A model generated the notes under the pieces. That model saw only the letters and a list, made by a program, of their open reading frames with translations. It was not told the DNA's origin and did no database searches. The translations under genes and the position numbers were made by a program. DNA of 64,000 nucleotides from Candidatus Poribacteria bacterium (GTDB lineage: Bacteria; Poribacteria; WGA-4E; WGA-3G), in the NCBI GenBank assembly GCA_965202725.1, contig OZ241845.1:1834621-1898620 (forward strand), written 5' to 3'. Numbering within the stretch: the stretch's first letter is position 1; every line of letters begins with the position of its first letter. Below, in pieces: positions 19,491 through 47,391 of the stretch.

Positions 19491-22400
19491 GTTTCAATTC
19501 CCTTCGAGCGGGAAAGTCTATTCAAAGGTAGTGATTGGCTGTGGTGATGAAGATATGATGGACAAAAAAGTTTTAATTCCCTTCGAGCGGGAAAGTCTAT
19601 TCAAAGGGAGCAGTGACATGTTTCTCTTCGCAGAGTGAGGCAGAGTTCCAATTCCCTTCGAGCGGGAAAGTCTATTCAAAGTAATCATCGCCATGGTCGT
19701 AGTAATGGGAGCTGTGGTAGATGTTTCAATTCCCTTCGAGCGGGAAAGTCTATTCAAAGAAGTACCACTCGAGGTACTCAGAGTGGCAACTTTCTGTGTT
19801 TCAATTCCCTTCGAGCGGGAAAGTCTATTCAAAGATATTGGAAACAAGGTTGGTGGGACTCGAGTCTAAGGAAACCTGGTTTCAATTCCCTTCGAGCGGG
19901 AAAGTCTATTCAAAGACTGGTTGCGGTGATGAGGATATCGACGGACAAAAAAGTTTTAATTCCCTTCGAGCGGGAAAGTCTATTCAAAGGCACTTGCTCT
20001 TTCCGGAGCCTGTGGTGGTTGATGGCAAGATGTGTTTCAATTCCCTTCGAGCGGGAAAGTCTATTCAAAGAGGTTGTGGTGAAGGAATTGAAACCCCCGT
20101 CTCTGTGTTTCAATTCCCCTCGAGCGGGAAAGTCTATTCAAAGATATTGGAAACAAGGTTGGTGGGACTCGAGTCTAAGGAAACCTGGTTTCAATTCCCT
20201 TCGAGCGGGAAAGTCTATTCAAAGTGGTCGTAGTAGTTGGTTGCGGTGATGAGGATCTAAACTTGTTTTAATTCCCTTCGAGCGGGAAAGTCTATTCAAA
20301 GGTTGATATAAATTATACTACATCATCAGTAAAAAGTCAAGTGGTTTCAATTCCCTTCGAGCGGGAAAGTCTATTCAAAGACCTCGGTTACGTCTCCTAC
20401 AGCAAAAACTACCGCCTCGGTTCCGGAGTTTCAATTCCCTTCGAGCGGGAAAGTCTATTCAAAGACAAAACATACAGTTCAACGACAATCGGGGCGCTGA
20501 ATATGTGTTTCAATTCCCTTCGAGCGGGAAAGTCTATTCAAAGAGGTTCAACTGGAAGCAATAGCCAGGATTATTGTTTCAATTCCCTTCGAGCGGGAAA
20601 GTCTATTCAAAGGCGGGTTAAGCCTCGGTATAACGGCGGGTCTTGTTTCCATTCCCTTCGAGCGGGAAAGTCTATTCAAAGTAAAAAAGGCCCCGCTAGG
20701 AGAAAAGAATTGTTGAAAAAGGTTTCAATTCCCTTCGAGCGGGAAAGTCTATTCAAAGGCGTTGGGACCAGATCATGTCAAAGAGATTGGCATGATCGGT
20801 TTCAATTCCCTTCGAGCGGGAAAGTCTATTCAAAGTATCATCCACCAGGGGAACTCGAATACATCCCCTTTTAGTTTCAATTCCCTTCGAGCGGGAAAGT
20901 CTATTCAAAGTTGGGACCAGATCATGTCAAAGAGATTGGCATGATCGGGTTTCAATTCCCTTCGAGCGGGAAAGTCTATTCAAAGGTCGAGACCGATTGC
21001 CAAAACCTGATCTCCTCTTTAGTTTCAATTCCCTTCGAGCGGGAAAGTCTATTCAAAGAAGGCAAGGGGGACACGGCTGTTGCCGTGCGTTTCAATTCCC
21101 TTCGAGCGGGAAAGTCTATTCAAAGGAAAAATTGAAACAGACGACCTCTCGCGGCGCCAGATTCGTTTCAATTCCCTTCGAGCGGGAAAGTCTATTCAAA
21201 GCATTCTCCAATCCAAAGTTCCCTATTGCGGCACTGGCAGTGTTTCAATTCCCTTCGAGCGGGAAAGTCTATTCAAAGCGCAAGGAGAAAAATTGAAACA
21301 GACGACCTCTCACGTTTCAATTCCCTTCGAGCGGGAAAGTCTATTCAAAGTTGAGAAGGTTGGGTGGGTGAGTCCTTAGCGGTACGTGTAGCGTTTCAAT
21401 TCCCTTCGAGCGGGAAAGTCTATTCAAAGACACCTCACGAAAACGAATTCTGCCACTGCTTTGTAGGTTTCAATTCCCTTCGAGCGGGAAAGTCTATTCA
21501 AAGTTAAGAAATACCACTTAGGGTGCGAAAACGGGCTCTACTAGTTTCAATTCCCTTCGAGCGGGAAAGTCTATTCAAAGTTTCTGATGAAGGAGAGGCT
21601 CAAAGAGATCCCACTCTGATGTTTCAATTCCCTTCGAGCGGGAAAGTCTATTCAAAGGAGGTCCGCGAGGATGCGGCAACCTTAGATCATGAGGTTTTGT
21701 TTCAATTCCCTTCGAGCGGGAAAGTCTATTCAAAGGGGGGAAGAGGAAACGTGCTGGAGATAAGCACACGCTCGTTTCAATTCCCTTCGAGCGGGAAAGT
21801 CTATTCAAAGGGGGGAAGAGGAAACGTGCTGGAGATAAGCACACGCTCGTTTCAATTCCCTTCGAGCGGGAAAGTCTATTCAAAGTGGACTCGTAATCGC
21901 CAAGCATATAGGAATTACACGTTTCAATTCCCTTCGAGCGGGAAAGTCTATTCAAAGTAGAATGCTTGTGTTTTCTGTGGTAGGCGGGACAGTTTCAATT
22001 CCCTTCAAGCGGGAAAGTCTATTCAAAGTCTGCACTGCGAAAAGAACCTCATCCAGGGGATAACAACGTTTCAATTCCCTTCGAGCGGGAAAGTCTATTC
22101 AAAGCAGAGGTTTTTCCGATTATGTCGCACACCGAGTGGTGCGAGTTTCAATTCCCTTCGAGCGGGAAAGTCTATTCAAAGTCTCTTACACCGCAGCGGT
22201 GAAAGAGATACAAGAGCTGCTAGAGAAGTTTCAATTCCCTTCGAGCGGGAAAGTCTATTCAAAGGATTTTTCGCTGGTCTCAAAGATGGCGGGAAACGGC
22301 ATGCGTTTCAATTCCCTTCGAGCGGGAAAGTCTATTCAAAGTTGAGTGGGTGGGGGAGATGCCCACTGAGGTGGGGGAGTTTCAATTCCCTTCGAGCGGG

Positions 22401-23962
22401 AAAGTCTATTCAAAGAAGGTTCAAAAAAATAAAAAAAAAGAGACCTGAGTAAGTGTTTCAATTCCCTTCGAGCGGGAAAGTCTATTCAAAGGAAACCAAA
22501 AGTGTTATCAAAGCGCGGGGGACGCCGGGTTGTTTCAATTCCCTTCGAGCGGGAAAGTCTATTCAAAGATTCAGGTCCAGTCTCAGCGGATACCAGGGCG
22601 CAAGGTGTTTCAATTCCCTTCGAGCGGGAAAGTCTATTCATCCCCATTCCGGAAGACTGGAAATCCCCATTCCGGAGATATGACTGGGAGCGCGATATTC
22701 TCGTGTTTCAATTCCCTTCGAGCGGGAAAGTCTATTCAAAGAAAATCATGAGGATGAAAATAATCGATGGTACGTTGTACCAGTTTCAATTCCCTTCGAG
22801 CGGGAAAGTCTATTCAAAGTTGTACACGAAAATAGCACGAGATTGGATCAAGGCGAAACGTTTCAATTCCCTTCGAGCGGGAAAGTCTATTCAAAGCACT
22901 AGGAGGAGAATTGAAAAAGATCTCATGTGGTGGCGTGTTTCAATTCCCTTCGAGCGGGAAAGTCTATTCAAAGTTCCTTGAGAAGAAGGTTGGGCAGGTT
23001 TTTTGCAGGTTTCAATTCCCTTCGAGCGGGAAAGTCTATTCAAAGTACAGAATAAAAATGAAAACCATCGATGGTACCTTGTACCATCCGTTTCAATTCC
23101 CTTCGAGCGGGAAAGTCTATTCAAAGGAGTGGGTGGGAGAGATGCCCACTGAGGTGAGGAATACCGAGGGTTTCAATTCCCTTCGAGCGGGAAAGTCTAT
23201 TCAAAGTGTCGGCACAAGGAAACTGGGTGTGGATGCCGTTAGTTTCAATTCCCTTCGAGCGGGAAAGTCTATTCAAAGACTTCTGGGAGTGGGCGGAACG
23301 GGTATGCACAACCAAACCAGAGTTTCAATTCCCTTCGAGCGGGAAAGTCTATTCAAAGGAGGAGGTTGTAATGACCATCAAAGAGGATTACAGGTTTCAA
23401 TTCCCTTCGAGCGGGAAAGTCTATTCAAAGGTTAGGTCTTTCACAGTTTTCACAGCATGGGCTCCACTGTTTCAATTCCCTTCGAGCGGGAAAGTCTATT
23501 CAAAGTAGTTACACAACTCTCAACAAGGGAGACCTGGGCATGTCTCGTTTCAATTCCCTTCGAGCGGGAAAGTCTATTCAAAGAGGTTGCCTCTGAGGAG
23601 ACTGATGAGATTGCTCTCGAAAGTTTCAATTCCCTTCGAGCGGGAAAGTCTATTCAAAGTGTCAATGAGTTAACCTTCGAGGAATTCACCAGGAAGTTTC
23701 AATTCCCTTCGAGCGGGAAAGTCTATTCAAAGGAATTGGGAAAAGAGAAGTCCAAAACTATTGTCAACAGTTTCAATTCCCTTCGAGCGGGAAAGTCTAT
23801 TCAAAGGAGTAAGAAAAGAGAGAAAGGCTTGCCACCCATAAAATGTTTCAATTCCCTTCGAGCGGGAAAGTCTATTCAAAGGTCTGAGGAAAGAATTCGC
23901 AAAGAAGAAATCAGAGCGAAAAATCGTTTCAATTCCCTTCGAGCGGGAAAGTCTATTCAAAG
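19491..23962 (-). CRISPR. CRISPR array 1: 59 repeats (37 nt; GTTTCAATTCCCTTCGAGCGGGAAAGTCTATTCAAAG on the plus strand) and 58 spacers of 35-50 nt
   Basis: Repeat starts were counted by hand at a period of about 74-78 bp. A few variant repeats occur (20107 cccct, 20645 gtttcc, 21992 ttcaag, and 22607 3'-degenerate). The transcribed orientation is inferred to be the minus strand: the reverse complement ends in ATTGAAAC after a TTCCC/GGGAA hairpin, the leader promoter is at 24196-24224, and the degenerate array lies at the low-coordinate side. Confidence 0.95.
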
Positions 23963-24195
23963 AGTCCCCATTTTAAGCCCAGTGAGGCCGTGGCTCCATA
24001 CACCCCAAACCAAACGAGAACTGCGCGGGGCTTTTTTCTTCCTAAAATTTACCCCCTAAAATCCCACGAACCCTTGTAAACATTGACCCAAACGGGAATG
24101 TTTAACAAAAAAACGTTTGAAGCAAGACATCATATGGGTTCCCGGTGATTTAAAACGCATTTGCACCCGATTGGAGAATCACGTTTGTATTTATA

Positions 24196-24224
24196 AGTAT
24201 ACCCTAAATTGGCGCATAAGTCAA
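24196..24224 (-). promoter_or_regulatory. Leader promoter for array 1 (A8, TTGACT-N17-TATACT, minus strand); leader runs about 23963-24188
   Basis: The minus strand reads aaaaaaaatTTGACT tatgcgccaatttaggg TATACT. It lies about 225 nt upstream of the first repeat. Confidence 0.55.
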
Positions 24225-24289
24225 ATTTTTTTTAAAGTAGGGGCATTTATAGTAGATGTCGGAATTTAGGGCTTACGCAGGCTGATCTT

Positions 24290-24760
24290 TTGTAGCACAT
24301 CCCCTTGTTTGCGGGGAGCAGGGGGGTTATGCATGCAGAACCCCTCGCCTGCGAGGCGCTGGGGCTATAAAGGAGGCACAGCTTAACAGGAAACTATGCT
24401 ACAAAGGAAGAAGACACAGCCTAACAGGCTATGCTACGAATACTGCACAGCCTAACAAATCAATTTGCCCCTGAGCTATCCCCTGCGGACTAGCCTAACA
24501 GGTTATGCTACAACTTAAAACACAGCCTAACAGGCTATGCTACAACTTAAAACACAGCCTAACAGGCTATGCTACGAATACTGCACAGCCTAACAGGCTA
24601 TGCTACGAATACTGCACAGCCTAACAGGCTATGCTACAAAAGACACAGACACAGCCTAACAAGCTATGGTACAGATGCACAGCCTAACAGGAAACTATGG
24701 TACAAAGAAGAAGCCCCCCGCTTGCGGGGGGGCCTTCCCCTTGCTTGCGGAGGCGTGGAC
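24290..24760. repeat. Repeat cluster between the array 1 leader and cas1
   Basis: About nine copies of CACAGCCTAACAGGCTATGCTAC, spaced 30-40 bp apart. They are flanked by GC-rich hairpins ('ccccttgtttgcggggagcagggggg' and 'gccccccgcttgcgggggggc ... ccccttgcttgcgg'). Confidence 0.8.
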
Positions 24761-24763
24761 CTT

Positions 24764-25756
24764 TTAGGCACGAATGAGGAAGGATTTGTATGCTGGCTCT
24801 TCACCTGTCACCACGCGAGCCAGATGCCTGACCTGTAGCTCAATCGAGCGGAGATAGGTCGTTTTCTCGTTGCGCGTCGGGTGTTGGAACGTCTGCTGCA
24901 TCCGCCCATGGTACCCTTTAAGGAATCGATCCAAAGCTGCCTTGGTGAAACGGATACCTTTGTTCGTCTGCTCGAAATCTTCCGGTTGCACTCGCTTGTG
25001 ATTGACAAGCGATAACACGTATCCATCTACAATAATCTGACGGAACTCTTCCATCAGGTCCGAGGCGAGGGCTGCATGTCCGTGCTTGGGTTGATGAAAG
25101 TAGCCGCAGTATGGATCGAACCCGACGACATGGGTGAAAGTGTAAACGTGGTTGTGTAAGAGGGTATAGCCGAGTGAAAGCATCGCGTTAATTGGGTCAG
25201 GTGGTGGTCGGAATTGTCGCGTTGTGAAGCCCCACTCGTGGCGTAGCAATTGTCGGAATGCCCGATAATAGGCGGCTGCGCCGGCCCCTTCGTATCCGAG
25301 CAGGGATTCCAAATTCTTCGCGCGGTCAAGTTTTTGCACGGTTTGCCGCACAGAACTGATTGCTGACTTAACCTCGGCGGTTTGGGTGCGTTGGCGTTGG
25401 CAAAATCGGGCAGCGTTTGTGAGTTTACCGCGAATAAAACATTTCGCCAACCCCAGGCAATACTTTGAATCTGCAGCAAGGGTGTACTGTTGTCGTCGAA
25501 TGCGTGTATCTTTGGCATAAGCCGGTTGGAGTTTCCCCTTGTATGTCCCCCGTGAGGAGAGAAAGGAGACGGGTATGTTTTTATCGAGCAGGTATCCCAT
25601 CGTCGGTGTTGTGATGTGTCCGTTGCCGAAAATGACGACCTCATCGAGCTGGACGATTGGGATTTCTTGAAGGACTTCGCGTTCTTTTTTTACGATAACT
25701 TGGTTGCCGGATTTGTGGAGCATTGCGCCTTGTTGGGTGATGTAAAGGATTGCCAT
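24764..25756 (-). CDS. cas1: CRISPR-associated endonuclease Cas1
   Basis: 330 aa. Typical N-terminal 'LYITQQGAMLHKSGNQVIV' and the conserved 'GFDPYxGxxH' acidic/His block. The gene sits next to the array leader. Confidence 0.9.
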   Translation of the reverse strand: MAILYITQQGAMLHKSGNQVIVKKEREVLQEIPIVQLDEVVIFGNGHITTPTMGYLLDKNIPVSFLSSRGTYKGKLQPAYAKDTRIRRQQYTLAADSKYCLGLAKCFIRGKLTNAARFCQRQRTQTAEVKSAISSVRQTVQKLDRAKNLESLLGYEGAGAAAYYRAFRQLLRHEWGFTTRQFRPPPDPINAMLSLGYTLLHNHVYTFTHVVGFDPYCGYFHQPKHGHAALASDLMEEFRQIIVDGYVLSLVNHKRVQPEDFEQTNKGIRFTKAALDRFLKGYHGRMQQTFQHPTRNEKTTYLRSIELQVRHLARVVTGEEPAYKSFLIRA

Positions 25757-25799
25757 TTAATGCCTCCGATGTCATGTAAGTTTGATTTTTAAAGGTTGT

Positions 25800-25975
25800 T
25801 ACACAGGTTTTTAGCATCCCCCCTGCTTGCGGGGGGGCAGGGGGGGTCTCCCCTTGCTTGCGGGCTGCAGGTTTTTAGCATCCCCCCTGCTTGCGGGGGG
25901 CAGGGGGGGGGTATCCCCTTACTTGCGGGGAGGCGGTTGTGCCACAGCAGATGCACAGCCTAACAGGCTATGCTA
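25800..25975. repeat. GC-rich hairpin repeats and one dispersed-repeat copy between cas1 and the RT gene
   Basis: A direct duplication of about 65 bp. Each copy contains 'tttttagcatcccccctgcttgcgggggggcagggggg', an inverted repeat cccccctgc / gcagggggg. Then comes 'cacagcctaacaggctatgctac'. Confidence 0.7.
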
Positions 25976-27355
25976 CGAATGTTTTAAACGTTTGCTAAAT
26001 CGTGTGGCGATGTTTTTGCCTCGCTGTGTTACAAGTTTGCCTGAGCGTACGACGTGTGATGTGCCGTTTTTCAGGGCTTGCTGGATGTGGTTTTGTAAGC
26101 CCGCTGCCCGTGAGTCGGGAACGGGTCGGTAGCAGCCGTCGCTATCAAAGATGTGTCCGAGGAATTCAACCCCGGTGTCGAAGTGCGCGATTTGGGTCTT
26201 TTTGGGATTGACAGCTAACTTCAGCCGCCCGAGGTGTTTCTGGGCGTACTCACAGGCGTGCTGTGCTCTGCCTTCACTTCGGCAAAGGAGGAGCAGGTCG
26301 TCTGCGTATCGGACGAGCCGCATTCCTGATCGCGTCATCGCCTTATCGAACGGATGCAGATAGATATTCGCGAACAGGGGCGAGAGGGGCGAGCCTTGGA
26401 GAATTCCGATTTTCCGAGGACGGTTCATCCGCTCCTTCACGATGCTGCCTACAGTCGGTGCAGCCAGTGCAGCGACTACCAACGGGGCAGCGATGAGCAG
26501 GTGCTTCGCTGCAAGCGGTTTCCACAACCGTTTGGCGTTGGCAAGGAGTAGCAGCAGCCCATCTCTCCCTAAGTTCGTCAACAGCTCTTTTCCTGTTGGG
26601 GTTAAGTGACCATCCGTTGTGGCAATTTCGGATGCGTCAACATCCCAGTCGTCTTCTGTAAGTGCGTTCTCATATTCGCTATAATGCCCAGCATCTGGCG
26701 TGCGATGCAGTATTTGGTTAATCACGTTCTCAACACCTTCACCGATATGATGCACCGTGTTTTCGAGATGCGTGCCCCATGTCGGGAATTTGGGGGGTTG
26801 TAGAACGCCGCCCATATCCAGCCACATCTGGATGAGCCGAATAATCGCGGGTTCTTTCAGGGATGCCCGCAGAAACCGCATCAGGATGTGCGTATCCATT
26901 TCATCAAAGAAGTTCTCAATATCGGCATGAACGACCCATTCGTAGCCTTCTGATCGGATCGCGGCGACTTGCGCGATTGCATGCGGCACCCCACGGTTGG
27001 GGCGATACGCGAAACTACACGCCAGAAATTTTGCCTCGTAGATCGGTGAGATGAGATCACAAACGGCACGCTGCACAATCCGATCTTTTAAGGTTAGCAC
27101 TGAGAGTTCTCGCGTACTCCCGTTGGATTTCTGCAGTGTGAATTTTTGAACAGGGAGTGGGTAATACCGCTCTTCGGCAAGCTCACGTGAGAGTTGACGG
27201 AGATGTTTCGCGAGGTTTGCCTCGAACTGTTGAAGGGTGACACCATCGCTACCGGGACCGCTCTTGTTGCTGCGGACCTTCCGCCATGCGGCATGTAGGG
27301 TTTCGGGTTGACAGAGTTGTGTGGAGAGTGAAATACTTGGTGTACAATTAAGCAC
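25973..27355 (-). CDS. Stand-alone CRISPR-associated reverse transcriptase (group-II-intron-like RT)
   Basis: RT domain 0 'LHAAWRKVRSNKSGPGSDGVT', domain 2 'FAYRPNRGVPHA', and YADD box 'LVRYADDLLLLC'. A large insertion separates the fingers from the palm. Start assigned to GTG at 27355 with AGGAGG 6 nt upstream. The ORF tool's extra 11 N-terminal codons would be encoded by the RBS. Confidence 0.85.
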   Translation of the reverse strand: MLNCTPSISLSTQLCQPETLHAAWRKVRSNKSGPGSDGVTLQQFEANLAKHLRQLSRELAEERYYPLPVQKFTLQKSNGSTRELSVLTLKDRIVQRAVCDLISPIYEAKFLACSFAYRPNRGVPHAIAQVAAIRSEGYEWVVHADIENFFDEMDTHILMRFLRASLKEPAIIRLIQMWLDMGGVLQPPKFPTWGTHLENTVHHIGEGVENVINQILHRTPDAGHYSEYENALTEDDWDVDASEIATTDGHLTPTGKELLTNLGRDGLLLLLANAKRLWKPLAAKHLLIAAPLVVAALAAPTVGSIVKERMNRPRKIGILQGSPLSPLFANIYLHPFDKAMTRSGMRLVRYADDLLLLCRSEGRAQHACEYAQKHLGRLKLAVNPKKTQIAHFDTGVEFLGHIFDSDGCYRPVPDSRAAGLQNHIQQALKNGTSHVVRSGKLVTQRGKNIATRFSKRLKHS

Positions 27356-27394
27356 GAATGTCCTCCTGGTTATTACAGGCAACGGCACGGGCTC

Positions 27395-28690
27395 CTGATA
27401 GGAAACTATGCTATAGCAGATGCACAGCCTAACAGGAAAACACGCTACAAAAAGACACAGACACAGCCTAACAAGCTATGCTACAGAAGATGCACAGCCT
27501 AACAGGCTATGCTACGAAATAGGTTATGCTACGAAATAGGTTATGCTATAGAAGTGGCACAGCCTGACAGGCTATGCTACGAAATAGGCTATGGTACAGA
27601 AGAGTGACCTGTGTGAATTAAGTGGAACTGTTTTGGGATGATTGAAAAAGGTACATGACATTGATTAGACGTTTGTATAGAGTCTGCAAGGAATGAAAAG
27701 GATAGTAAAAAATTTAAAAGGATGGTAGCATAGCCTGTTAGGCTGTGCCTTAGGATGTCCTGGTAGCATAGCCTGTTAGGCTGTGCCTTAGTTGTAGCAT
27801 AGTTTGTTGTAGCATAGCCTGTTAGGCTGTGTCTTAGCCCGTCAGCTGAGTGTGTATTTTTTCGTAGCATAGCCTGTTAGGCTGTGTCTTAGGATGTCCT
27901 GGTAGCATAGCCTGTTAGGCTGTGTCTTAGCCCGTCAGCTGAGTGTGTATTTTTTCGTAGCATAGCCTGTTAGGCTGTGTCTTAGGATGTCCTGGTAGCA
28001 TAGCCTGTTAGGCTGTGCCTTAGCCCGTCAGCTGAGTGTGTATTTTTTCGTAGCATAGCCTGTTAGGCTGTGTCTTAGGATGTCCTGGTAGCATAGCCTG
28101 TTAGGCTGTGTCTTAGCCCGTCAGCTGAGTGTGTATTTTTTCGTAGCATAGCCTGTTAGGCTGTGTCTTAGGATGTCCTGGTAGCATAGCCTGTTAGGCT
28201 GTGCCTTAGGATGTCCTGGTAGCATAGCCTGTTAGGCTGTGTCTTAGGATGTCCTGGTAGCATAGCCTGTTAGGCTGTGTCTTAGGATGTCCTGGTAGCA
28301 TAGCCTGTTAGGCTGTGCCTTAGTTGTAGCATAGTTTGTTGTAGCCTGGTTTCCTGTTAGGCTGTGCCTTAGCTCGTCAGCTGAGTGTGTATTTTTTCGT
28401 AGCATAGCCTGTTAGGCTGTGTCTTAGGATGTCCTGGTAGCATAGCCTATTAGGCTGTGCCTTAGTTGTAGCATAGTTTGTTGTAGCATAGCCTGTTAGG
28501 CTGTGCCTTAGGATGTCCTGGTAGCATAGCCTGTTAGGCTGTGTCTTTTTGTAGCCTAGTTTCCTGTCAGGCTCTGCCTTAGCCCGACTGCTTTAACGGA
28601 TCACATCTCATTAAGACAAGTCTTGTGATTAAGACCGTGATGCACAGCCTGACAGGCTATGCTACGAAACAGGCCATGCTACAACAGAGG
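27395..28690. repeat. Large tandem cluster of the dispersed hairpin repeat (about 35 copies) between the RT and SWIM genes
   Basis: 27395-27610 is in CACAGCCTAACAGGCTATGCTAC orientation. 27720-28690 is in the opposite orientation, with perfect 38-bp periodic units 'ggtagcatagcctgttaggctgtgtcttaggatgtcct' and about 80-bp higher-order units. The linkers are themselves repeated, so this is not a CRISPR array. Confidence 0.85.
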
Positions 28691-28693
28691 GCA

Positions 28694-30163
28694 TTAAATG
28701 TCGGCGATGATTCGTAGCAGCAGTCTCTTGCGGGAATGTTGCTTGCGGAAATGCGTCAGATAAGCAACCCACTGATCTTCCTTATTAAGATGCTGATAGA
28801 GTTGCTTCAAGTCAATTAAGTACCGCTGAGCCCTCTCGTAACCCTCTTGCTTTCGAGAGAGGACGATCTGTTCAATGCATTTTTGATAGAGAACGATAGT
28901 CGTCCCTGACACATGATGTCTGAGGACGCTAAACAATTTTTCAGTGAATCCTGACATACGTTTTGCGATGGGACTCTGTAAGAGGTGCCAGTATTCGTCA
29001 ACAGCGAGGGGCAATTCTGCAACGGCTTTCCACGCGGCATCGTCGCGCTGCTGGGTAAAGAGGGCGTGTATGAACCGATAGTTTTCGCCCTCGGCTTGCG
29101 AAAAACGGAGATACTCTTCGGCCCTATTCGCCTGATCATATAAGGCAAGTAGCAGGCGAACATGCGCTTGGCGATCTGGGCTTCCATCGAGGTGTTGTTC
29201 AAGCGTTGTTTGTAAACTCCCTATTTCTTGCGTGGGGCAGAGCTGTTCAAGGAGACGAGTCAGGGGTAACGTAAAAATCGGCTCTCCATCGAAACTGAGC
29301 TGCAATAGCATTCGGCAGTGTTCAAGGGTCTCGGGGGGTTGCTGGACATTCATGGCGACTCGCGCGAACGTTTTTGTGCATTTATTGACGAATCTCGGTA
29401 ATTCACCCCTCTGGAGCGTGTCGGGGGAACGAACAACGGATTGACGGATGAGGGCGTGCAGAATTATCAGCGCGAACTCCGATTCACCCAGCTGCAGAAG
29501 GGACTCGGCATGATGCCGCAGTTTTTCCAGCTGAACGAGAACGTTACGCAGCTGGTGCTGTTCAAGAAAATCCCGTCCAAAAATACGGTCAACGCGTTCA
29601 CTATAGACCTCAACGGTAGCGGGAAGTGTTGCTTTGTGTGCGGTTGTTCTACTGTCTACATCCACCTGATCTAGCATATCTGCATAAGCAGATTGTGATC
29701 CGAAACGGCTTGCATGATCGCAGAAGTCTACATCCACCTGATCTGGCATATCTGCATAAGTCAACACGACTGGCACTAACCTTGGCGTTCGTTTCAACAA
29801 TTCTGAGATAATTTGTAGAAGGCTACGCTTCGGTTTCTCAGCAAGCCTGGTGAGTAAGGCATCCATGTCACAGATTCCCTCTGGTTCATGGGCGTAGGTT
29901 AGCAGGAGCGCGACGATGTGTTTACAATCTCCTCCCCAATCATAAGGGCAGGAACACTCAGCAGCGGCGATCCCTGTCGGCATCAACGCTACAGAAACCT
30001 GATATGGGGCTCGGGCTGTCCCCTGGCACGTTGCGGACAGCGTCCAGCCGTGACAGACCGGGTTACCGATCGCGCCGGCGTGAAAGTATGCTAAGCCTCG
30101 CCTGAAGCTCTGGTCTGTACAGCGAGATCGAACCTGATCGGAGGTTAGGTTTGGAAGTTGCAT
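28694..30163 (-). CDS. SWIM zinc-finger domain protein, translationally coupled to cas2
   Basis: About 490 aa. SWIM CxCxnCxH signature 'CSCPYDWGGDCKHIVALLL' at about residues 73-91. The rest is mostly helical. There is an internal 13-aa tandem duplication 'YADM(P/L)DQVDVD'. The minus-strand context TGA-t-ATG with the cas2 stop shows coupling. Confidence 0.6.
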   Translation of the reverse strand: MQLPNLTSDQVRSRCTDQSFRRGLAYFHAGAIGNPVCHGWTLSATCQGTARAPYQVSVALMPTGIAAAECSCPYDWGGDCKHIVALLLTYAHEPEGICDMDALLTRLAEKPKRSLLQIISELLKRTPRLVPVVLTYADMPDQVDVDFCDHASRFGSQSAYADMLDQVDVDSRTTAHKATLPATVEVYSERVDRIFGRDFLEQHQLRNVLVQLEKLRHHAESLLQLGESEFALIILHALIRQSVVRSPDTLQRGELPRFVNKCTKTFARVAMNVQQPPETLEHCRMLLQLSFDGEPIFTLPLTRLLEQLCPTQEIGSLQTTLEQHLDGSPDRQAHVRLLLALYDQANRAEEYLRFSQAEGENYRFIHALFTQQRDDAAWKAVAELPLAVDEYWHLLQSPIAKRMSGFTEKLFSVLRHHVSGTTIVLYQKCIEQIVLSRKQEGYERAQRYLIDLKQLYQHLNKEDQWVAYLTHFRKQHSRKRLLLRIIADI

Positions 30164-30164
30164 A

Positions 30165-30440
30165 TCAAACGACAATTGTTTGCGGAGCTGAGGTCACTTC
30201 ACCGACAGCAGGCACTTCCACGCGCCCGGCGCAATTACCACAGAACGTGTAGTAGCGAACTGAATCTTCAGCAAGATCAATAACACGCGCAACGGCATTC
30301 TTAAGTGCCTCATACTGTCTCCGGTTGAGATGTGCTTCAAATACGCTGTACTGGACACGCGTGCCGAACCCTTTAAGCACTTTTGCGAGTCGGTTGCGCC
30401 TGTGATCGTCAGGAATATCGTAAGTGATGACATAGAGCAT
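30165..30440 (-). CDS. cas2: CRISPR-associated endoribonuclease Cas2
   Basis: '[35 protein letters not shown]' is a canonical Cas2 N-terminus. Start placed at the second Met (ATG at 30440) with GGAGGT 7 nt upstream. The first Met of the ORF overlaps the promoter -10 element. Confidence 0.85.
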
Positions 30441-30465
30441 CAATTTACCTCCAGTTTGGTTTATA

Positions 30466-30494
30466 AGCATACCCTAAATTTGCACATAAGTCAA
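30466..30494 (-). promoter_or_regulatory. cas2-SWIM operon promoter (TTGACT-N17-TATGCT, minus strand)
   Basis: The minus strand reads aaaaTTGACT tatgtgcaaatttaggg TATGCT. About 20 nt further is GGAGGT, then the cas2 ATG. It shares about 40 nt with the array 1 leader promoter region. Confidence 0.55.
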
Positions 30495-30519
30495 TTTTCC
30501 CGACAGATTTAATTTGACT

Positions 30520-31045
30520 CCTAAGCGAGAAGGAAGGTATAATCTAAGATATGCTGTTTATTTCTGTCATCATTCACGTCAAGAGATGTGATACCCGTAG
30601 GGGCGAGGTTTCCTCGCCCGATAGAGGAGACGGGTTGGGAAACCCAACCCCTACGAGAAGTAAATATCGCTCCGCTGTTGTAGCATGGTTTCCTGTCAGG
30701 CTGTGCCATCTGTATTGCTCTTCCGTAGCATAGCCTGTTAGGCTGTGTTAGCTTGTAGCATATCCTGTTGTAGCATAGCCTGTTAGGCTGTGTTAGCTTG
30801 TAGCATGGTTTCCTGTCAGGCTGTGTTAGCTTGTAGCATATCCTGTTGTAGCATGGTCTCCTGTTAGGCTGTGCCATCTGTATTGCTCTTCCGTAGCATA
30901 GTTTCCTGTCAGGCCGTGTTAGCTTGTAGCATGGTTTCCTGTTAGGCTGTGTTAGCTTGTAGCATAGTTTCCTGTCAGGCTGTGCAATCTTACCCCCACA
31001 ACCCCACCCAAGCAAGGGCGGGGGAGAGTGGCTACAAAAAGGCAT
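30520..31045. repeat. Repeat cluster between cas2 and the decarboxylase gene
   Basis: About ten copies of GTAGCAT(A/G)G(CC/TTTCC)TGT(T/C)AGGC(T/C)GTG, then a GC-rich hairpin element at about 30994-31030. The 174-aa ORF here is a repeat translation. Confidence 0.8.
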
Positions 31046-31100
31046 CAGGTGTCCGGCCTACTAACATTAATGAAGTCCAACAATTGGAGATCGGAAGTAC

Positions 31101-32732
31101 GTGAACTATCGCGATATTTTAAAAGACATTCGCCAGGCTTTTCCGCAACCTGTAGCAGACCCTATCCATAATTCCTATTTCGTGCATTCTATCATGCGCG
31201 CCTTGGACCAGGTCGATGAACTCAAAACACATCTGCCAATGCTCGGCAGCGTCATCCCTGCTGATTTTGCAGCAGCGCGCCAGACAACCCTACCTGAAAC
31301 GATGTCCTCCGTTAAGGATGTCACAACCGACCTCGTGAGCTACCTCCGAGGTATGACGATCTTCGGACACCCGCGCACGCAACAGAACGTTGTTGCCCCA
31401 CCAACAATTCCAAGCCTGATCGGGGTGCTCCTCGCGTCTCTCTACAATCCAAACCTCGCCTGGGATGAATACAGTCGACTAGTGGCATTGGCTGAGGTTG
31501 AGGTCATCGGGATGACCTCAAAAATGGTGGGATACGATCCAGAGGCATCAGGCGGCGTATTTACTTTCGGCGGCACGGGAACAACCTTCTACGGGGTAAA
31601 ACTTGGCTTGGAAAAAGCTGACCCAGGCACGGTCGAAAACGGCACCTCTGAAGACGTAGTTGTGTTTGTGTCAGATACAGGCCACTATTGCGCCACGAAC
31701 ATCGTCGGTTGGCTCGGCATCGGAACAAAGAATCTCATCACGATCCCAACGACATTTGAAAACGAAATGGATCTCGAGGTACTGGCACAAGAAACCCGCA
31801 AGGCACTGGAAAACGGAAAAAAGATCGCCGCTATTATTGCTACATTAGGCACCACGGACGCCTTTGGATTGGACGACTTAGCGCGCATCGTGGCGTTACG
31901 GGATAAACTTGTCGAGGACTTCAAACTGGACTATCAACCACACGTTCACGCAGACGCGGTTATCGGATGGGCATGGTCGGTCTTTAACGCTTACGATATT
32001 GAGGAGAACCCCCTAGCGTTTCGCCCGCGCACCCTCCGGGCGTTAGCAGGCACACGCCGGCGGATACGGCATTTAGCCCTCGCCGATTCAATCGGCATTG
32101 ACTTTCACAAAACCGGGTTTGCACCCTACATCTCGAGTCTTCTCCTCGTCAAAAACCGAACGGATCTAGATTTGGTGAAACGGCACCCCGAACAGATGCC
32201 CTATCTTTATCACTTCGGAGATTACCGGCCCGGTATGTACACACTTGAGACTTCAAGGGCAGGAACGGGGGTTCTCGCTGCCCTTGCGAACCTCCGACTC
32301 TTTGGCGAGCAGGGATTGCAAACGATTCTTGGACATATCGTTGAAATGGCCCAGCTCCTGCGCGAACACCTTGGCGGACACGCAGCCACAACCGTGGTCA
32401 ACCGAGAGAACTTCGGAACCGTCACCCTGTTCCGCGCCTATCCAGACGGCGTGGATACTTTCCCAATTCAAAATCAGGAATTTAAAGACCCTGCATATCG
32501 CGACAGCTTGCGCAAACACAACGCGTATAACCAAAAGATTTTTGAATATGTCCAAGCGGAAGCCATGGAGGGCAGGGGGGTGGTTATCTCCACAACGGAC
32601 TGTTACCGATACACTGCTTACGGTGAACCGATTGTCGCGCTAAAGTCATATATCCTCTCCCCGTTCGTCGATGAAGTGGACGTGGAGACTGTGGTCACCA
32701 AGGTGCTGGAAGCGCGGGAGAAGGTTGATTAA
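31101..32732 (+). CDS. PLP-dependent group II amino-acid decarboxylase (tyrosine/glutamate/diaminobutyrate decarboxylase family)
   Basis: 543 aa. The 'DSIGIDFHKTGFAPY' block matches the S-x-HK PLP-lysine motif of group II decarboxylases. Substrate is unknown. Confidence 0.7.
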   Translation: MNYRDILKDIRQAFPQPVADPIHNSYFVHSIMRALDQVDELKTHLPMLGSVIPADFAAARQTTLPETMSSVKDVTTDLVSYLRGMTIFGHPRTQQNVVAPPTIPSLIGVLLASLYNPNLAWDEYSRLVALAEVEVIGMTSKMVGYDPEASGGVFTFGGTGTTFYGVKLGLEKADPGTVENGTSEDVVVFVSDTGHYCATNIVGWLGIGTKNLITIPTTFENEMDLEVLAQETRKALENGKKIAAIIATLGTTDAFGLDDLARIVALRDKLVEDFKLDYQPHVHADAVIGWAWSVFNAYDIEENPLAFRPRTLRALAGTRRRIRHLALADSIGIDFHKTGFAPYISSLLLVKNRTDLDLVKRHPEQMPYLYHFGDYRPGMYTLETSRAGTGVLAALANLRLFGEQGLQTILGHIVEMAQLLREHLGGHAATTVVNRENFGTVTLFRAYPDGVDTFPIQNQEFKDPAYRDSLRKHNAYNQKIFEYVQAEAMEGRGVVISTTDCYRYTAYGEPIVALKSYILSPFVDEVDVETVVTKVLEAREKVD

Positions 32733-32776
32733 CAGTTCATACCTAACAGATCACACGCCAAGACAGGAAATTTGTT

Positions 32777-32986
32777 ATGCCTGAATTACCTGAATTAATG
32801 AGCTCACCACCATTTTTACTAATTGCAGCCGTATTCGCCATATCTATTATCCTCGGGATCCTCAAGCACGCATGGCGTTTCTTGATCTGGATTGCTGGTA
32901 TTGTTGCTGTTCTCCTCTGGCTGGGTGTTACGAATGTACCCCAGATGAGAGACTGGTTTGAGAGACTTCTGAAAATAGTGGAGTGA
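32777..32986 (+). CDS. Possible small two-helix membrane protein (69 aa)
   Basis: Two hydrophobic segments. AGGAAA about 7 nt upstream of the ATG. It overlaps the 3' end of cas6 on the opposite strand, so it may be spurious. Confidence 0.2.
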   Translation: MPELPELMSSPPFLLIAAVFAISIILGILKHAWRFLIWIAGIVAVLLWLGVTNVPQMRDWFERLLKIVE

Positions 32987-33935
32987 TACGGTACTGCCCA
33001 TGTCCAAACGCTGTGTGGTGCCCGATGTGTAGATACTCGCCGAGATAGATAAAGGGTAGGAACGGTTCTAACGCACCGGTAAAGCGAACCTTCCCGATAA
33101 ACCCACCCATCGGAACGGATTTCTCAGCTCGATAGGAGTAGCGATCTGCCCGTATCCAATAAAAATTGGATACGTCCGTTACGGCCTTCGCGGTGTCAAT
33201 TAGGGCCCGGGCATCTACCGCTAAGTCTTCACCACAATGGAAATAGCTCAGGAATCGGATACGCCGGAGTAGGTTGCGGATGAGGTGTTCAAAGGTCAGC
33301 TTGCTTGTCCACTTTCCTTCCACTTTGATGCTGGTGGGTGTGAGAAACTCCAACGCAATCTCATCAATTCCGTTCGGCACGCTACGCATGACGTCGTCCC
33401 GCCCAAGAATCTGACCGTCGTCTGTGAGTAGTTCGGTTGCTGCTGTGTAAATTGTTCGGATGTCTTGGCTGCCCCGTGCGGGAAGGGTTTCTACCTTATC
33501 AAGACGGCACTGTCCGCGTTTCCCACGGATGCCGACCCGCCGCCTACCTATCTCGCGGAAGGTGAAGACCAGCCATGGTAATAGGGTGATTGTCTCGCCG
33601 ATGAGGGTCAGCGTGCAGGTGAAGGTATCGCCGGGGGCATAGTCCAGTTGCTGAGTGTGTGGCGGTTCAAGAATAAACGGGTGCGGCGCGAAGGGCTGTG
33701 CGCGTAGCATTGGACTGTCATCGGGGACAGGCGTTTCAAAGCATTTAGAGTAGACGCACCGGGCTGGGTGCTGGCACTGTGTGTGGCATCGCGTTTCGCC
33801 GCTGATGCATGTTATGTCGCGCAGCAGGTATCCCAACCGGCTGCGGAAGATGTTGCCTTTGTATGCCGGCATCTTTAGCGGTTCTCGGACGGTGTATGTG
33901 AATCGGTAGCGTGCGAATCTGAAGTTTTGGAGCAT
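32928..33935 (-). CDS. cas6: CRISPR repeat endoribonuclease Cas6
   Basis: C-terminal glycine-rich loop 'IGHHTAFGHGQYRI' matches the Cas6 G-x-x-T-x-x-G-x-G signature. The N-terminus 'MLQNFRFARYRFTY' is typical of Cas6. At 335 aa it is longer than most Cas6 proteins. Confidence 0.75.
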   Translation of the reverse strand: MLQNFRFARYRFTYTVREPLKMPAYKGNIFRSRLGYLLRDITCISGETRCHTQCQHPARCVYSKCFETPVPDDSPMLRAQPFAPHPFILEPPHTQQLDYAPGDTFTCTLTLIGETITLLPWLVFTFREIGRRRVGIRGKRGQCRLDKVETLPARGSQDIRTIYTAATELLTDDGQILGRDDVMRSVPNGIDEIALEFLTPTSIKVEGKWTSKLTFEHLIRNLLRRIRFLSYFHCGEDLAVDARALIDTAKAVTDVSNFYWIRADRYSYRAEKSVPMGGFIGKVRFTGALEPFLPFIYLGEYLHIGHHTAFGHGQYRITPLFSEVSQTSLSSGVHS

Positions 33936-33993: not shown

Positions 33994-35148
33994 CTATGGG
34001 CTTTTGTACACAACGTTACGATTGCCGTAGTGCCTCAGTGTCAAACCGCCAGGAGCCCTTTCACAACTGACCCGAATACCCCGGGCAATACGGAAGGTGT
34101 AGATATTATCATGATTTGCAAGTTGTTGAAACTTGAGGCCAGAAACTCGGGCATTCAGTTGGGTTATATTCCCATTACTCTCTTCCAGCGCTACAGCTAT
34201 CTTCGCCAAGGTTTCCTGAAGGTCTTCCCATTGATCGTTGTTTAACTTCTGACAGTCGTTGGTGAAACTTTGCTGATACACTAACCGAGGGAATTTCAAC
34301 AGTTCTCCAGATAACAGATCTGATTTCGATCGCTGCCAGAGCAACTCCCCCCACGTCGATAATCCCGCATAAGTCTGGCCATTTTCTTCTACGAATTCCA
34401 GAAGCGTTTCTGAAATACCACTAAGCTCGTCAATCGGATATAACTTTCCTGCAGCCATCAATGCAAATTCCGTCAGATTTTCTTCAATAACAGCGGTATT
34501 AATCTGTATTGGCAGGCTCGGGATCTTGATTAACTCAGCATTTTCTGACTCAAAGATATATATCACTTCATCGGCGTAAAATGCCCCGAAGGTATTCATG
34601 TAACCTTGCAGACTCTTGAAGCCCCCGACAAGGTTGAAAATCACGCGATAGCCGCCCCCCTGTAGCGGCGGCACATTGTCCTGTCGCCGCGGCACAGTGT
34701 CCTCAAGCCACTCAATCAATTTCTTTGTCCCCGTGGTGAAGGACTCCGGATCTTGTGTTGAAAGCCGATCAGGAATGAAAACGTTCACGTTAAAGCCTTG
34801 TCCCTCGAGGAAATCCTTAATCAATTCACCAGTTTGTCGTCCTTGTGCGGTATCGGTGCAGATGAGATGGTGTTCGTCATTGCTATCCGTGGGCAGTTGG
34901 CCGCCATAGATGCCGTAAATGCCGTTCAATTCAGCACTGATCCGACGATTAGCCTGGGGATTGTTATCCATAAGCCGTTCGAGTGCTCGGGCCGCAAGTG
35001 TATTAATCACCTCTTTCGCATTGGGTGTTAATTCGTCTTGCGTGAGATTTGCCGAATCTCGCAGCGTTCCGAACCAAGTTCCCTCGTCTTCCCTATCAAT
35101 AAGATTTGTCAGGATACTGGTTCCAACAGTTGATAAAATAAAACGCAT
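33994..35148 (-). CDS. CARF-RelE fusion effector (Cami1-like cyclic-oligoadenylate-activated mRNA interferase, predicted)
   Basis: N-terminal CARF signature 'MRFILSTVGTSILTN'. The C-terminal roughly 90 aa, 'IYTFRIARGIRVSCERAPGGLTLRHYGNRNVVYK', aligns by eye with the RelE/ParE toxin core (YRIxYxxD...LxVLxxGHRxxxY). Confidence 0.65.
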   Translation of the reverse strand: MRFILSTVGTSILTNLIDREDEGTWFGTLRDSANLTQDELTPNAKEVINTLAARALERLMDNNPQANRRISAELNGIYGIYGGQLPTDSNDEHHLICTDTAQGRQTGELIKDFLEGQGFNVNVFIPDRLSTQDPESFTTGTKKLIEWLEDTVPRRQDNVPPLQGGGYRVIFNLVGGFKSLQGYMNTFGAFYADEVIYIFESENAELIKIPSLPIQINTAVIEENLTEFALMAAGKLYPIDELSGISETLLEFVEENGQTYAGLSTWGELLWQRSKSDLLSGELLKFPRLVYQQSFTNDCQKLNNDQWEDLQETLAKIAVALEESNGNITQLNARVSGLKFQQLANHDNIYTFRIARGIRVSCERAPGGLTLRHYGNRNVVYKSP

Positions 35149-35180
35149 TATATACCTCTGTTATCAATATTATAAGGTTA

Positions 35181-35285
35181 TCCGAACCGGCTGCGGAAGA
35201 TGTTGCCCTTGTATGCCGGCATCTTTAGCGGTTCTCGGACGGTGTATGTGAATCGGTAGCGTGCGAATCTAACGTTTTGGAGCAT
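35181..35285 (-). pseudogene. Duplicated cas6 5' fragment (35 codons then stop)
   Basis: Encodes 'MLQNVRFARYRFTYTVREPLKMPAYKGNIFRSRFG*'. About 100 nt are roughly 95% identical to 33833-33935. It starts 9 nt after the stop of the upstream CARF gene. Confidence 0.6.
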
Positions 35286-35293
35286 AGTGTTGT

Positions 35294-36391
35294 TCACGCC
35301 CAACCGAAGGCAGCGCGTATGTATCGATGAAATGTTTGCCGGAGGTCATACCACGTATTTTTCCCCCAGATTTCTAAAGACTGGCTTGAACGCCCTGTTT
35401 CTTCTCTCAATTCGGCTTGGATTAGCTGCTGCGCCTCTTGCGAAGCCCCACACAACACAATCGCACGTGCCTCAACACCGCCGAGTTGCCGCATCCGTAA
35501 AATAGCCTCCATCCCTTTTTCCTTCACCCGGTCATGTTTATAAGCAAGGGTACACGAAACGACAACGACTTGGTAACCCAGGACTGCAACTACGTCAAGT
35601 TCAAAAGGCTTCACACTTGCGTCTGATAGATCGGATCGTCGGACATATACCTTGTGGAAAAGTCTATAGTTGTTCCGATCCGGGCACTGTCGGGACACAT
35701 CTCCCAAGGCATCCTGAAAGGCAGCATACGCCCCGTATTCAAGAAGTTCCGGTGTAGAACACCTACCCCTATTGACTACTGCACGGCCTTTCGCCAATTG
35801 CTCTCGGCTGAGCGTGTTGGGGGCAGGACAACTTCTCGTTTGATTGTTCCCTAATTCATCCCGATATTCATAAAAAAATGGGCCGAGTTCAAAACCGTTG
35901 AGATCAGCAATTCGCAGCAAAGAAGGATCTACTCCCTTGCGAGTATCTGAGACTAAGACATTCCCATTCCGGTCTATGAGGGTCGCCCCCGCGTCGGCAC
36001 GTGGATCCAGATAAGAGGTCTCTACATCCATACCTTGTGATGGAAGGGAAACCTTAAGATTTTCTGCCGCAGCGACGGTTTCAACGCACATCACCTTCGT
36101 GCCACCAGTATAATGTACGTGAATGCAAGTCGTATTGTCTGGTAAATTGTGCACGAGGCTCCGGGTTATGTCGTTGCGTACAGTAGCCGGATTTCCTGAC
36201 ACTGTTTCGACCGTATCAATAACAGGGACATCGCCACTATATTTCAGCAGTCGATCCCGTTCGGGTCTTGTTTCTTTCGTATGCACGAGTCGGACATAGA
36301 TAGGGGCTGGCAGTTTATCTTTCAAATGATGGAGTGCCACCCACACAGGTAGGGGATTGGTGCCAACTGTTAGCATGAGCAGCGTTCCCAT
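35294..36391 (-). CDS. CARF-domain effector with uncharacterised C-terminal domain (possibly restriction-endonuclease-like / Can2-like)
   Basis: N-terminal CARF signature 'MLTVGTNPLPVWVAL'. The C-terminal roughly 170 aa contain 'FELDVVAVLGYQVVVVSCTLAYK', a candidate PD-(D/E)xK-like strand pair. The assignment is weak. Confidence 0.5.
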   Translation of the reverse strand: MGTLLMLTVGTNPLPVWVALHHLKDKLPAPIYVRLVHTKETRPERDRLLKYSGDVPVIDTVETVSGNPATVRNDITRSLVHNLPDNTTCIHVHYTGGTKVMCVETVAAAENLKVSLPSQGMDVETSYLDPRADAGATLIDRNGNVLVSDTRKGVDPSLLRIADLNGFELGPFFYEYRDELGNNQTRSCPAPNTLSREQLAKGRAVVNRGRCSTPELLEYGAYAAFQDALGDVSRQCPDRNNYRLFHKVYVRRSDLSDASVKPFELDVVAVLGYQVVVVSCTLAYKHDRVKEKGMEAILRMRQLGGVEARAIVLCGASQEAQQLIQAELREETGRSSQSLEIWGKNTWYDLRQTFHRYIRAAFGWA

Positions 36392-36469
36392 GGGGACAGT
36401 TTCCTCCGTTTTCCTACAAATTTTGCTGAACTCCGAAAAGGTCGTGCTTGTGCTGCGGTATTTCAGGGG

Positions 36470-47362: not shown

Positions 47363-47391
47363 AGTATAGCTGAAATTGAAAAGAAAGTCAA
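47363..47391 (-). promoter_or_regulatory. cas10 operon promoter (A8, TTGACT-N17-TATACT, minus strand)
   Basis: The minus strand reads aaaaaaaaCTTGACT ttcttttcaatttcagc TATACT. It lies about 470 nt upstream of the cas10 ATG. It is preceded on the transcript side by a GC hairpin element (47425-47455) that separates it from the Rieske gene. Confidence 0.5.

Follow-up and report, generated by a model that had tools for sequence, protein, structure and literature searches.

The 64,000-nucleotide (nt) stretch of Candidatus Poribacteria DNA analysed here (contig OZ241845.1, positions 1,834,621 to 1,898,620; hereafter the window, whose own coordinates are used throughout) carries a CRISPR locus in which a gene for a SWIM zinc-finger protein directly follows cas2. 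Comparison of this gene with its homologues gives good support to the view that it is a real, conserved partner of cas2 within a reverse transcriptase (RT)-Cas1-Cas2 adaptation module, and not a chance neighbour. We propose that the SWIM protein is a non-enzymatic accessory of adaptation that acts with Cas2 in a type III-D-like system, and we put the probability of this reading at roughly 0.55. The protein may have a part in spacer capture or in the regulation of Cas1-Cas2.

The locus is type III-D-like according to Pfam and PADLOC, with an effector set of Cas10, RAMPs, Csm2, Csx19 and Csx21. On the minus strand, the SWIM gene is followed in the 3′ direction by a 1.3-kb spacer, a stand-alone RT gene, cas1, the leader and one CRISPR array. 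On the 5′ side of cas2 are a divergent gene for a pyridoxal phosphate (PLP)-dependent decarboxylase, cas6, the genes for Csx1, a CARF-PDDEXK protein and Csm6, and the effector set.

The cas2-SWIM junction and its promoter-like block

The cas2 gene (30165..30440, minus strand) was identified with Pfam CRISPR_Cas2 (E 1.7e-24) and TIGR01573 (E 3.6e-18). It encodes 91 amino acids (aa), the length also given by the public gene call. Its true start is the ATG at 30440, and the sequence GGAGG, read as a Shine-Dalgarno element, is placed 7 nt ahead of this codon (30448..30452, minus strand). The ATG at 30470 was rejected as a start, as it lies inside the -10 hexamer, whereas ATG 30440 is preceded by GGAGG. 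The stop codon of cas2 (TGA, 30167-30165) is followed by one base and then by the ATG of the SWIM gene at 30163. The SWIM gene (28694..30163, minus strand) was listed as an open reading frame (ORF) of 28694..30175; from the ATG it encodes 489 aa. Thus, it begins 1 nt past the cas2 stop, as a first reading made from the sequence only had stated. The SWIM ATG has no Shine-Dalgarno sequence of its own, the GGAGG preceding cas2 only, and this stop-start arrangement suits translational re-initiation. A programmed frameshift at the cas2 stop was also considered and was dropped, since the junction is not conserved as a slippery site across loci.

An exact TTGACT-N17-TATGCT block is located 5′ of cas2 (30466..30494, minus strand), and the leader of the array contains a pattern match of the form TTGACT-N17-TATACT (24196..24224, minus strand). 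Over 39 nt, the block 5′ of cas2 (30460-30498) is 90% identical to the leader block (24190-24228). With a third, weaker match 5′ of cas10 (47391..47363), the TTGACT/TATGCT-type pattern has 3 matches against 0.28 expected by chance. A generic sigma-70 scan of the region showed no enrichment (7 found, 7.0 expected), and the case for a promoter therefore rests on the fact that other genomes conserve a 36-nt block at the two corresponding kinds of site. The same block was found in L002, L010, L012, L023, L025, L027, L083 and L085 (loci are given by their L numbers), either about 55 nt before cas2 or just past cas1 at the leader. This conservation supports a shared promoter element, as judged from sequence. 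Thus, cas2 and the SWIM gene make up a single unit, and the promoter-like block ahead of it is also found ahead of the array. The sequence-only reading had described this promoter as shared with both CRISPR leaders; the block before cas2 is exact as described, but the window has one array, and its leader has TATACT.

Conservation of the cas2-SWIM pair

To assess conservation, we used 37 distinct loci whose SWIM protein is at least 45% identical to that of the window, drawn from species-representative genomes, metagenomes and protein look-ups. Leaving aside truncated and frameshifted SWIM copies and those without upstream sequence, 28 copies remain, and cas2 lies directly upstream of every one (28/28). 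The gap is 1 nt in 19 of these, 6 nt in 2 and 186-604 nt in 5, and the remaining 2 are in-frame fusions. The other nine loci comprise 1 at a contig edge, 2 that are decayed and 6 truncated copies. The 1-nt gap is present in the window and 18 other loci, while the stop codon itself varies (TGA, TAA or TAG). RT and cas1 genes were found downstream of the SWIM gene wherever more than 4 kb of downstream flank was available, except in L021.

A search that started from the RT led to the same arrangement: all four loci retrieved (4/4) have Cas2-SWIM with a 1-nt gap. This search was saturated with close Poribacteria-type sequences, and the start of the SWIM association is not readable on the RT tree. 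The cas2-SWIM pair is kept with the decarboxylase gene on either side of it (ahead of cas2 or past the SWIM gene), with RT-cas1 inverted and with a different effector module. In L165, the order Cas2-SWIM-RT-Cas1 is retained with neither effector nor CARF genes nearby.

Two independent in-frame Cas2-SWIM fusions were detected in different subclades, each formed through its own 1-nt deletion. In the first (L001, protein P0099), the stop codon is also lost and the ATG is changed to AAG. A sequencing artefact is unlikely in this case, because a read error would not also remove the stop codon and change the ATG. In the second (L085), the letters of the stop codon and the ATG are still present, and an assembly indel is possible. 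Homologues recur next to cas2 and RT-cas1 in other genomes, and distant homologues sit in the further CRISPR loci described below. That the gene is a chance neighbour inserted by the flanking repeats is rejected by the conservation across the 37 loci.

We compared the ratio of nonsynonymous to synonymous substitution rates (dN/dS) among the genes of the module, as medians across gene pairs (36 pairs for SWIM). The median dN/dS was 0.21 for SWIM, 0.14 for Cas6, 0.13 for Cas2, 0.10 for RT and 0.08 for Cas1; the corresponding median aa identities were 57%, 76%, 75%, 80% and 85%. The SWIM gene is therefore under purifying selection, yet it is the fastest-evolving gene of the module. The dS values were about 0.2-1.4 even in the closest pairs and exceeded 2.5 in 6 of the 36 SWIM pairs.

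Seven Poribacteria genomes (L014, L015, L016, L018, L019, L020 and L022) carry a shorter SWIM copy of 312-334 aa, with 329 aa in most. In six of the seven, a nonsense codon interrupts the gene where Y362 would be encoded; in L020 it comes earlier. These copies sit among housekeeping genes of the TsaD/Sua5/TGT type, and the copy in L018 adjoins fragments of cas6 and cas1. The seven genomes have no cas-linked SWIM gene at the site, and no sampled genome has both forms. The short copies are nevertheless under purifying selection, and the N-terminal two-thirds of the protein may thus be useful without adjacent cas genes.

Domain organization of the SWIM protein

The sequence-only reading placed a CxCxnCxH motif near the N-terminus, and this was borne out: the motif CSCPYDWGGDCKH contains C70-S-C72-x7-C80-K-H82, and in translation the codons of the zinc ligands (C70-x-C72-x7-C80-x-H82) occupy 29918..29956 on the minus strand. 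Pfam detected the SWIM domain PF04434 at residues 56-90 (24.2 bits; cut-off 19.6). In an alignment of 53 homologues, C70, C72, C80 and H82 are invariant, and conservation spans the whole protein except the linker. The AlphaFold (AF2) model has a mean pLDDT (predicted local distance difference test) of 85.6 and consists of the SWIM domain (residues 1-137), a disordered acidic linker (142-177) and an all-helical alpha-solenoid (182-488). In the model, beta-strands are followed by a helix that bears the CxH ligands, an arrangement resembling a solved SWIM domain. The top structural matches were ZSWIM8 and then HEAT/ARM/TPR solenoids. No catalytic domain was detected by Pfam, NCBIfam, PADLOC or structural matching, and NCBIfam has no family for the protein. 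The modelled combination of a SWIM domain and a solenoid would have the look expected of a protein-binding adaptor.

The linker is encoded in part by a direct repeat of 35 nt with 1 mismatch, whose copies start 72 nt apart (29654..29688 and 29726..29760, both minus strand, numbered 1 and 2 in plus-strand order). Copy 2 codes for the first motif of the linker, YADMPDQVDVD, and copy 1 for the second, YADMLDQVDVD, in a part of the linker modelled with low confidence. A 13-aa tandem repeat encoded by 33 nt had been described here. The motif YADM(P/L)DQVDVD does occur twice, but the copies are about 13 residues apart rather than head-to-tail, and the repeat unit is 35 nt rather than 33. About 24 residues are missing here from the closest homologues, which have 465 aa. 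The simplest reading of the repeat is a recent in-frame duplication within a linker that is acidic and variable, rather than a functional motif.

The SWIM-DUF6880 superfamily

The SWIM protein was compared by hhalign with SWIM + DUF6880 proteins of Acidobacteriota (about 578 aa), and the match had a probability of 100% and an E of 7.4e-53 over 450 aligned columns. On this profile evidence, the protein belongs to a large bacterial SWIM-DUF6880 superfamily (PF04434 + PF21810), whose members likewise have an N-terminal SWIM domain followed by an alpha-solenoid. A profile search of 1.8 billion representatives returned 6134 relatives at E <= 1e-3, typically of 575-600 aa; the window protein is about 100 residues shorter than typical members. 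In the window protein, Pfam reported no match to PF21810 (DUF6880) at E <= 0.01. PF21810 is present in the close homologue P0075 and in many proteins of the Acidobacteriota-type clade (A2, labelled after its few named matches), and it is weak in L088.

Most members of the family are stand-alone genes in varied contexts outside CRISPR. The superfamily loci without cas genes include about 50 of Chloroflexota type (Anaerolineae and relatives) and L166, L167, L098 and L142. Some Chloroflexota-type homologues adjoin Wadjet genes, and others are found in metabolic contexts. In loci of Anaerolineales metagenome-assembled genomes (MAGs; L029-L032, L035, L036 and L045), homologues of about 575-605 aa are divergent beside genes of the sizes of Wadjet JetA-JetB-JetC, whose identities were confirmed by Pfam for L029 only. 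This pairing could reflect shared descent or a link to a second defence system. In the window protein, the N-terminal 130 residues match PDC-S62, the 566-aa model of a phage-defence candidate in PADLOC, at model positions 10-142 only (E 1.6e-13), and this match is confined to the SWIM domain.

When a rough neighbour-joining tree was built from the N-terminal domain, members linked to cas genes fell in one half of it, interleaved with unlinked ones. This interleaving suggests that recruitment to CRISPR loci has been recurrent, yet it is no property of the whole family.

Distant homologues in other CRISPR loci

Twelve CRISPR loci of other lineages, drawn from other metagenomes, contain a distant homologue (L088, L089, L095, L096, L100, L102, L117, L119, L139, L148, L153 and L168). 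The identity to the window protein is 27-35% over much of the protein, and in the SWIM domain only it is about 45-50% for L117, L119 and L148. The loci show at least four gene orders; they are mostly type III, and one is type I. A stand-alone RT is present in five of them (L089, L102, L139, L153 and L168), together with Cas1 and Cas2 in four of these five.

In L089, L102, L119, L153 and L168, the order is type III effector or ancillary genes, SWIM and Cas_NE0113. RT, Cas1 and Cas2 then follow in L089, L153 and L168. In L102, RT only follows in the available sequence, and the contig of L119 ends at NE0113. The SWIM proteins of L153 and L168 are closest to clade A2. In L139, the order is RAMP fusion, nuclease, SWIM, Cas1, Cas2 and RT, and in L088 the SWIM gene is directly ahead of cas1.

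The type I locus L148 has the order Cas3, SWIM, Cas2 and Cas4. Its SWIM gene (7980-8714) encodes a SWIM-only protein of 154 aa and is located 6 nt before cas2. This mini-SWIM protein also matches the N-terminus of the DpdE helicase model.

Two further proteins in these type III loci were recorded. The SWIM-DUF6880 protein of L168 (P0249, L168:9001-11010) has 669 aa and an extra N-terminal domain resembling STIV B116. In L102, a DUF4407 protein is encoded between the CARF genes and RT (L102:10781-12331); "DUF4407 + other protein" is listed as UAS-9, another adaptation-associated entry, by Altae-Tran et al. 2023 (PMC10910872).

Proposed role of the SWIM protein and alternative explanations

We propose the following role for the SWIM protein. 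Ribosomes that finish cas2 would re-initiate on the SWIM gene, so that both proteins would be made together. The SWIM protein would bind Cas2 and, via Cas2, the Cas1-Cas2 integrase. Most plausibly, it would serve as a scaffold or adaptor that tethers the free RT, or the nucleic-acid substrate of the RT, to the integrase; alternatively, it may gate integrase activity. The RT forms a fusion with Cas1 in those type III systems whose acquisition of spacers from RNA has been studied well. The RT of the window is free, and a Cas2-bound zinc-finger solenoid could keep it, or its substrate, at the integrase. A wider claim can be made tentatively: the SWIM-DUF6880 proteins of CRISPR loci might be a new class of Cas2-binding cofactor that bridges an unfused RT (or RNA/cDNA) to Cas1-Cas2 and is needed for, or directs, the acquisition of RNA-derived spacers in type III systems. 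We regard this wider claim as rather doubtful.

Several points weigh against an adaptation accessory that acts with Cas2. The conservation comes in large part from a single phylum and a single syntenic chromosomal site, flanked by the same PhyH/HEAT gene; thus, part of the Poribacteria-type conservation reflects shared descent. A decarboxylase that is probably unrelated is conserved at this site too. Most superfamily members are not cas-linked in the sampled loci, and Acidobacteriota-type proteins that are 53-54% identical to a cas-linked one adjoin toxin-antitoxin or hydrogenase genes. Among the truncated copies, the 6-7 without neighbouring cas genes still have dN/dS of 0.25-0.35, at dS of 0.6-1.0. 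From the unlinked superfamily members and these truncated copies, we therefore conclude that SWIM-DUF6880 is not intrinsically a Cas family. Furthermore, the distant type III loci place the SWIM gene beside the CARF gene Cas_NE0113, not beside cas2. The type I locus L148 has its SWIM-only gene beside cas2 without an RT, which argues against a strictly RT-specific role. Finally, binding to Cas2 is deduced from the fusions and gene order only.

The best-surviving alternative, which we nevertheless consider unlikely, is that the SWIM gene works independently in defence or sensing as a member of the SWIM-DUF6880 family: it would ride in cas operons and other defence islands and act alone, or regulate CRISPR expression, rather than take part in integration. 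The N-terminal match to PDC-S62 fits such a gene, as does the company kept by relatives beside Wadjet JetABC (L029 group), toxin-antitoxin genes (L166) and cyclase-STAND-TPR giants (L098). The survival of the truncated copies without neighbouring cas genes and the rate of evolution, higher than in the core cas genes as is often the case for conflict genes, point the same way. However, this explanation leaves the 1-nt coupling to cas2, the position in the adaptation unit, the two fusions and the promoter block shared with the array unaccounted for, and no effector or enzymatic domain is detectable in the SWIM protein.

An accessory of type III interference or signalling, such as a partner or regulator of CARF proteins like Cas_NE0113, appears improbable. 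In eight distant loci, the gene for the CARF-type Cas_NE0113 comes right after the SWIM gene or one small ORF later; NE0113 is also found in some Poribacteria-type loci, and the window locus has Csx1, CARF-PDDEXK and Csm6. In the Poribacteria clade, however, the SWIM gene is coupled to cas2 and not to a CARF gene, and L165 keeps the adaptation genes with SWIM where effector and CARF genes are absent nearby. Moreover, L148 belongs to type I, in which cyclic-oligoadenylate signalling is absent, and the SWIM gene of L088 comes directly before cas1.

It is equally improbable that the SWIM gene has a function outside CRISPR and has been kept by cas2 through the shared ancestry of one syntenic locus. 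Such hitchhiking would agree with the same chromosomal site across many genomes, with the conservation there of a PLP decarboxylase that has no obvious CRISPR role, and with the housekeeping-like contexts of most relatives. Against this, the pair is never separated in intact loci in spite of large dS and several rearrangements, two fusions to Cas2 exist, and distant homologues have been recruited to CRISPR loci of other lineages in different gene orders.

Other features of the window locus

The stand-alone CRISPR-associated RT gene (25973..27388, minus strand) was identified with Pfam RVT_1 (E 3.9e-31) and the PADLOC RT model (323 bits); it also matches the RT part of the PADLOC RT-Cas1 model. 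The public gene call has a later start than this ORF and gives 460 aa. An origin of the RT from a group II intron was rejected, because an Rfam scan of 23900-33000 detected no group II intron RNA, and because the RT matches CRISPR-associated RT models and stays beside cas1 across loci. The cas1 gene (24764..25756, minus strand, 330 aa) was identified with Pfam Cas_Cas1 (E 5.8e-94) and TIGR00287. The last gene of the effector and processing side ahead of the adaptation module is cas6 (32928..33935, minus strand; Pfam CRISPR_Cas6, E 2.5e-19).

The sequence-only reading noted that SWIM domains are often partnered with SNF2 helicases. This partnership was not seen here: no SNF2/SF2 helicase is fused to the SWIM protein, and the scan of 20 neighbouring ORFs of the CRISPR locus (24.7-50 kb) detected no helicase domain. 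Candidatus Poribacteria MAGs have genes 76-86% identical to the housekeeping genes that border the locus, which makes an origin of the window in this phylum of sponge symbionts very likely.

The PLP-dependent decarboxylase gene (31101..32732, plus strand, 543 aa) was identified with Pfam Pyridoxal_deC. A decarboxylase gene is also found beside cas2-SWIM in L002, L003, L006, L008, L010, L011, L013, L023, L025, L026, L083, L085, L165 and L169-L171. The identity between loci is 68-92%, and at least 79% in all but L085. In every case it is encoded on the opposite strand and takes one of two positions, in the cas6-cas2 interval or in the interval from the SWIM gene to RT. L165, where effector genes are absent nearby, also has it next to cas2-SWIM. 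It could be a part of the CRISPR system or a trapped housekeeping gene.

Three different CARF effectors are encoded in a row at 33994-37974 (minus strand): Csx1 of the APE2256 type, the CARF-PDDEXK nuclease and Csm6 (HEPN). The CARF-PDDEXK nuclease (35294-36391) has strong matches in PADLOC and none in Pfam.

The CRISPR array (19491..23962, minus strand) has 59 repeats of 37 nt, with the leader at the high-coordinate end, and its variant repeats cluster at the end opposite the leader. A second array was looked for in the window, and none was found. Two consecutive spacers at 21699-21885 are identical (three repeat-spacer units are 100% identical, with a period of 75). At 22607-22705, the 3′ end of one repeat is altered (…TTCATCC), and the next unit is unusually long (98 nt).

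The intergenic spacers of the cas locus are full of a short, hairpin-forming palindromic element, GCATAGCCTGTTAGGCTGTGC, at 24370-24700, 25930-25990, 27400-28690, 30660-30990, 48333-48480 and 11573-11644. Its copies form tandem arrays (periods of 31, 38 and 93 nt) and account for nearly all of the 1.3 kb that separates the SWIM gene from RT. Terminator-like hairpins occur 30 times, against 6.9 expected. The palindromic element had no match in Rfam, and the Rfam scan of 23900-33000 gave no family at the gathering score; the sole match at E <= 0.1 was a spurious long non-coding RNA. An ORF of 174 aa (30521-31045, minus strand), called as a gene in the public record, overlaps the palindromic repeats and has no family match. 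It is probably spurious. A second, G/C-rich repeat family, CCCCCCTGCTTGCGGGGGGGCAGGGGGGG, is placed between cas1 and RT and below cas1 (24285-24327, 24711-24750 and 25804-25929), and it includes a 64-nt tandem duplication.

Relation to known systems and significance

The sequence-only reading put the SWIM protein forward as a candidate new component of adaptation modules. The kind of association is already on record. Altae-Tran et al. (2023, Science; PMC10910872, Fig. 6B) include "SWIM: zinc finger domain" in a figure of new adaptation-module associations, and the supplement catalogues it as "UAS-14 (SWIM)", acquisition, with a score of 3/6.5 effective loci and without text, mechanism or experiment. 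Thus, the association itself had been catalogued, while the entry carries no further analysis. The representative of UAS-14 (IMG 3300027532, Ga0209544_1004784, 1334-3008; PMC10910872) has 558 aa. Like the window protein, UAS-14 is a SWIM-domain protein beside acquisition genes; this likeness is drawn from the catalogue description. Its 558 aa are near the 575-600 aa typical of SWIM-DUF6880 proteins, and members of this family in metagenome loci adjoin RT-Cas1-Cas2. The tight coupling to cas2, the Cas2 fusions, the Poribacteria clade and the link to a stand-alone RT seen here are not part of the entry. The link between SWIM and cas2 is much stronger than the single published catalogue line suggests. 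SWIM was not mentioned in the survey of type III accessory genes by Shah et al. (PMC6546367), in the CRISPRicity preprint or in the network study. Literature searches for SWIM with CRISPR type III, and for Poribacteria with RT and Cas1, found nothing.

Another RT system, the type XIII retron (Mestre et al. 2020, PMC7736814), has SWIM zinc-finger and HEAT/ARM-repeat proteins. These are the same two modules as in the window protein (SWIM and HEAT/ARM-like), there in separate proteins and here in one polypeptide. In the retron protein, a DEDE motif and a winged helix come first and the SWIM domain is at the C-terminus (PMC7736814), whereas that of the window protein is N-terminal. The SWIM_XIII model of PADLOC gave no match on the window protein; only L139 matched, weakly (E 0.001). 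Retrons have neither Cas1 nor Cas2, unlike the window locus. ZSWIM8 (PDB 9rwz) is a substrate receptor of a cullin-RING ligase in eukaryotes, and it resembles the window protein only in the domain and in general architecture: the overall TM-score is about 0.2 and the identity 13-17%, and there is no bacterial cullin system here.

Several non-core factors shape spacer capture with Cas1-Cas2, namely Cas4, Csn2, IHF and RT fused to Cas1. We found no relationship of sequence or fold between any of these and the SWIM protein. By analogy, RT-Cas1 fusions tie the RT covalently to the integrase; in the window locus, where the RT is free, a scaffold could replace this tie.

How RNA-derived spacers are chosen and delivered by RT-bearing type III systems is still poorly understood, and RT-Cas1 modules serve as molecular recorders. 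If the proposed role is correct, a conserved, non-enzymatic partner of Cas2 that occurs with free-standing RTs would be a new, testable component of the RNA-spacer step. The very large bacterial SWIM-DUF6880 family, with over 6000 cluster representatives, would thereby gain its first functional foothold. Should the SWIM gene prove to be a passenger instead, it would still clearly exemplify the capture of a gene by a cas operon, with fusion to Cas2 on two occasions.

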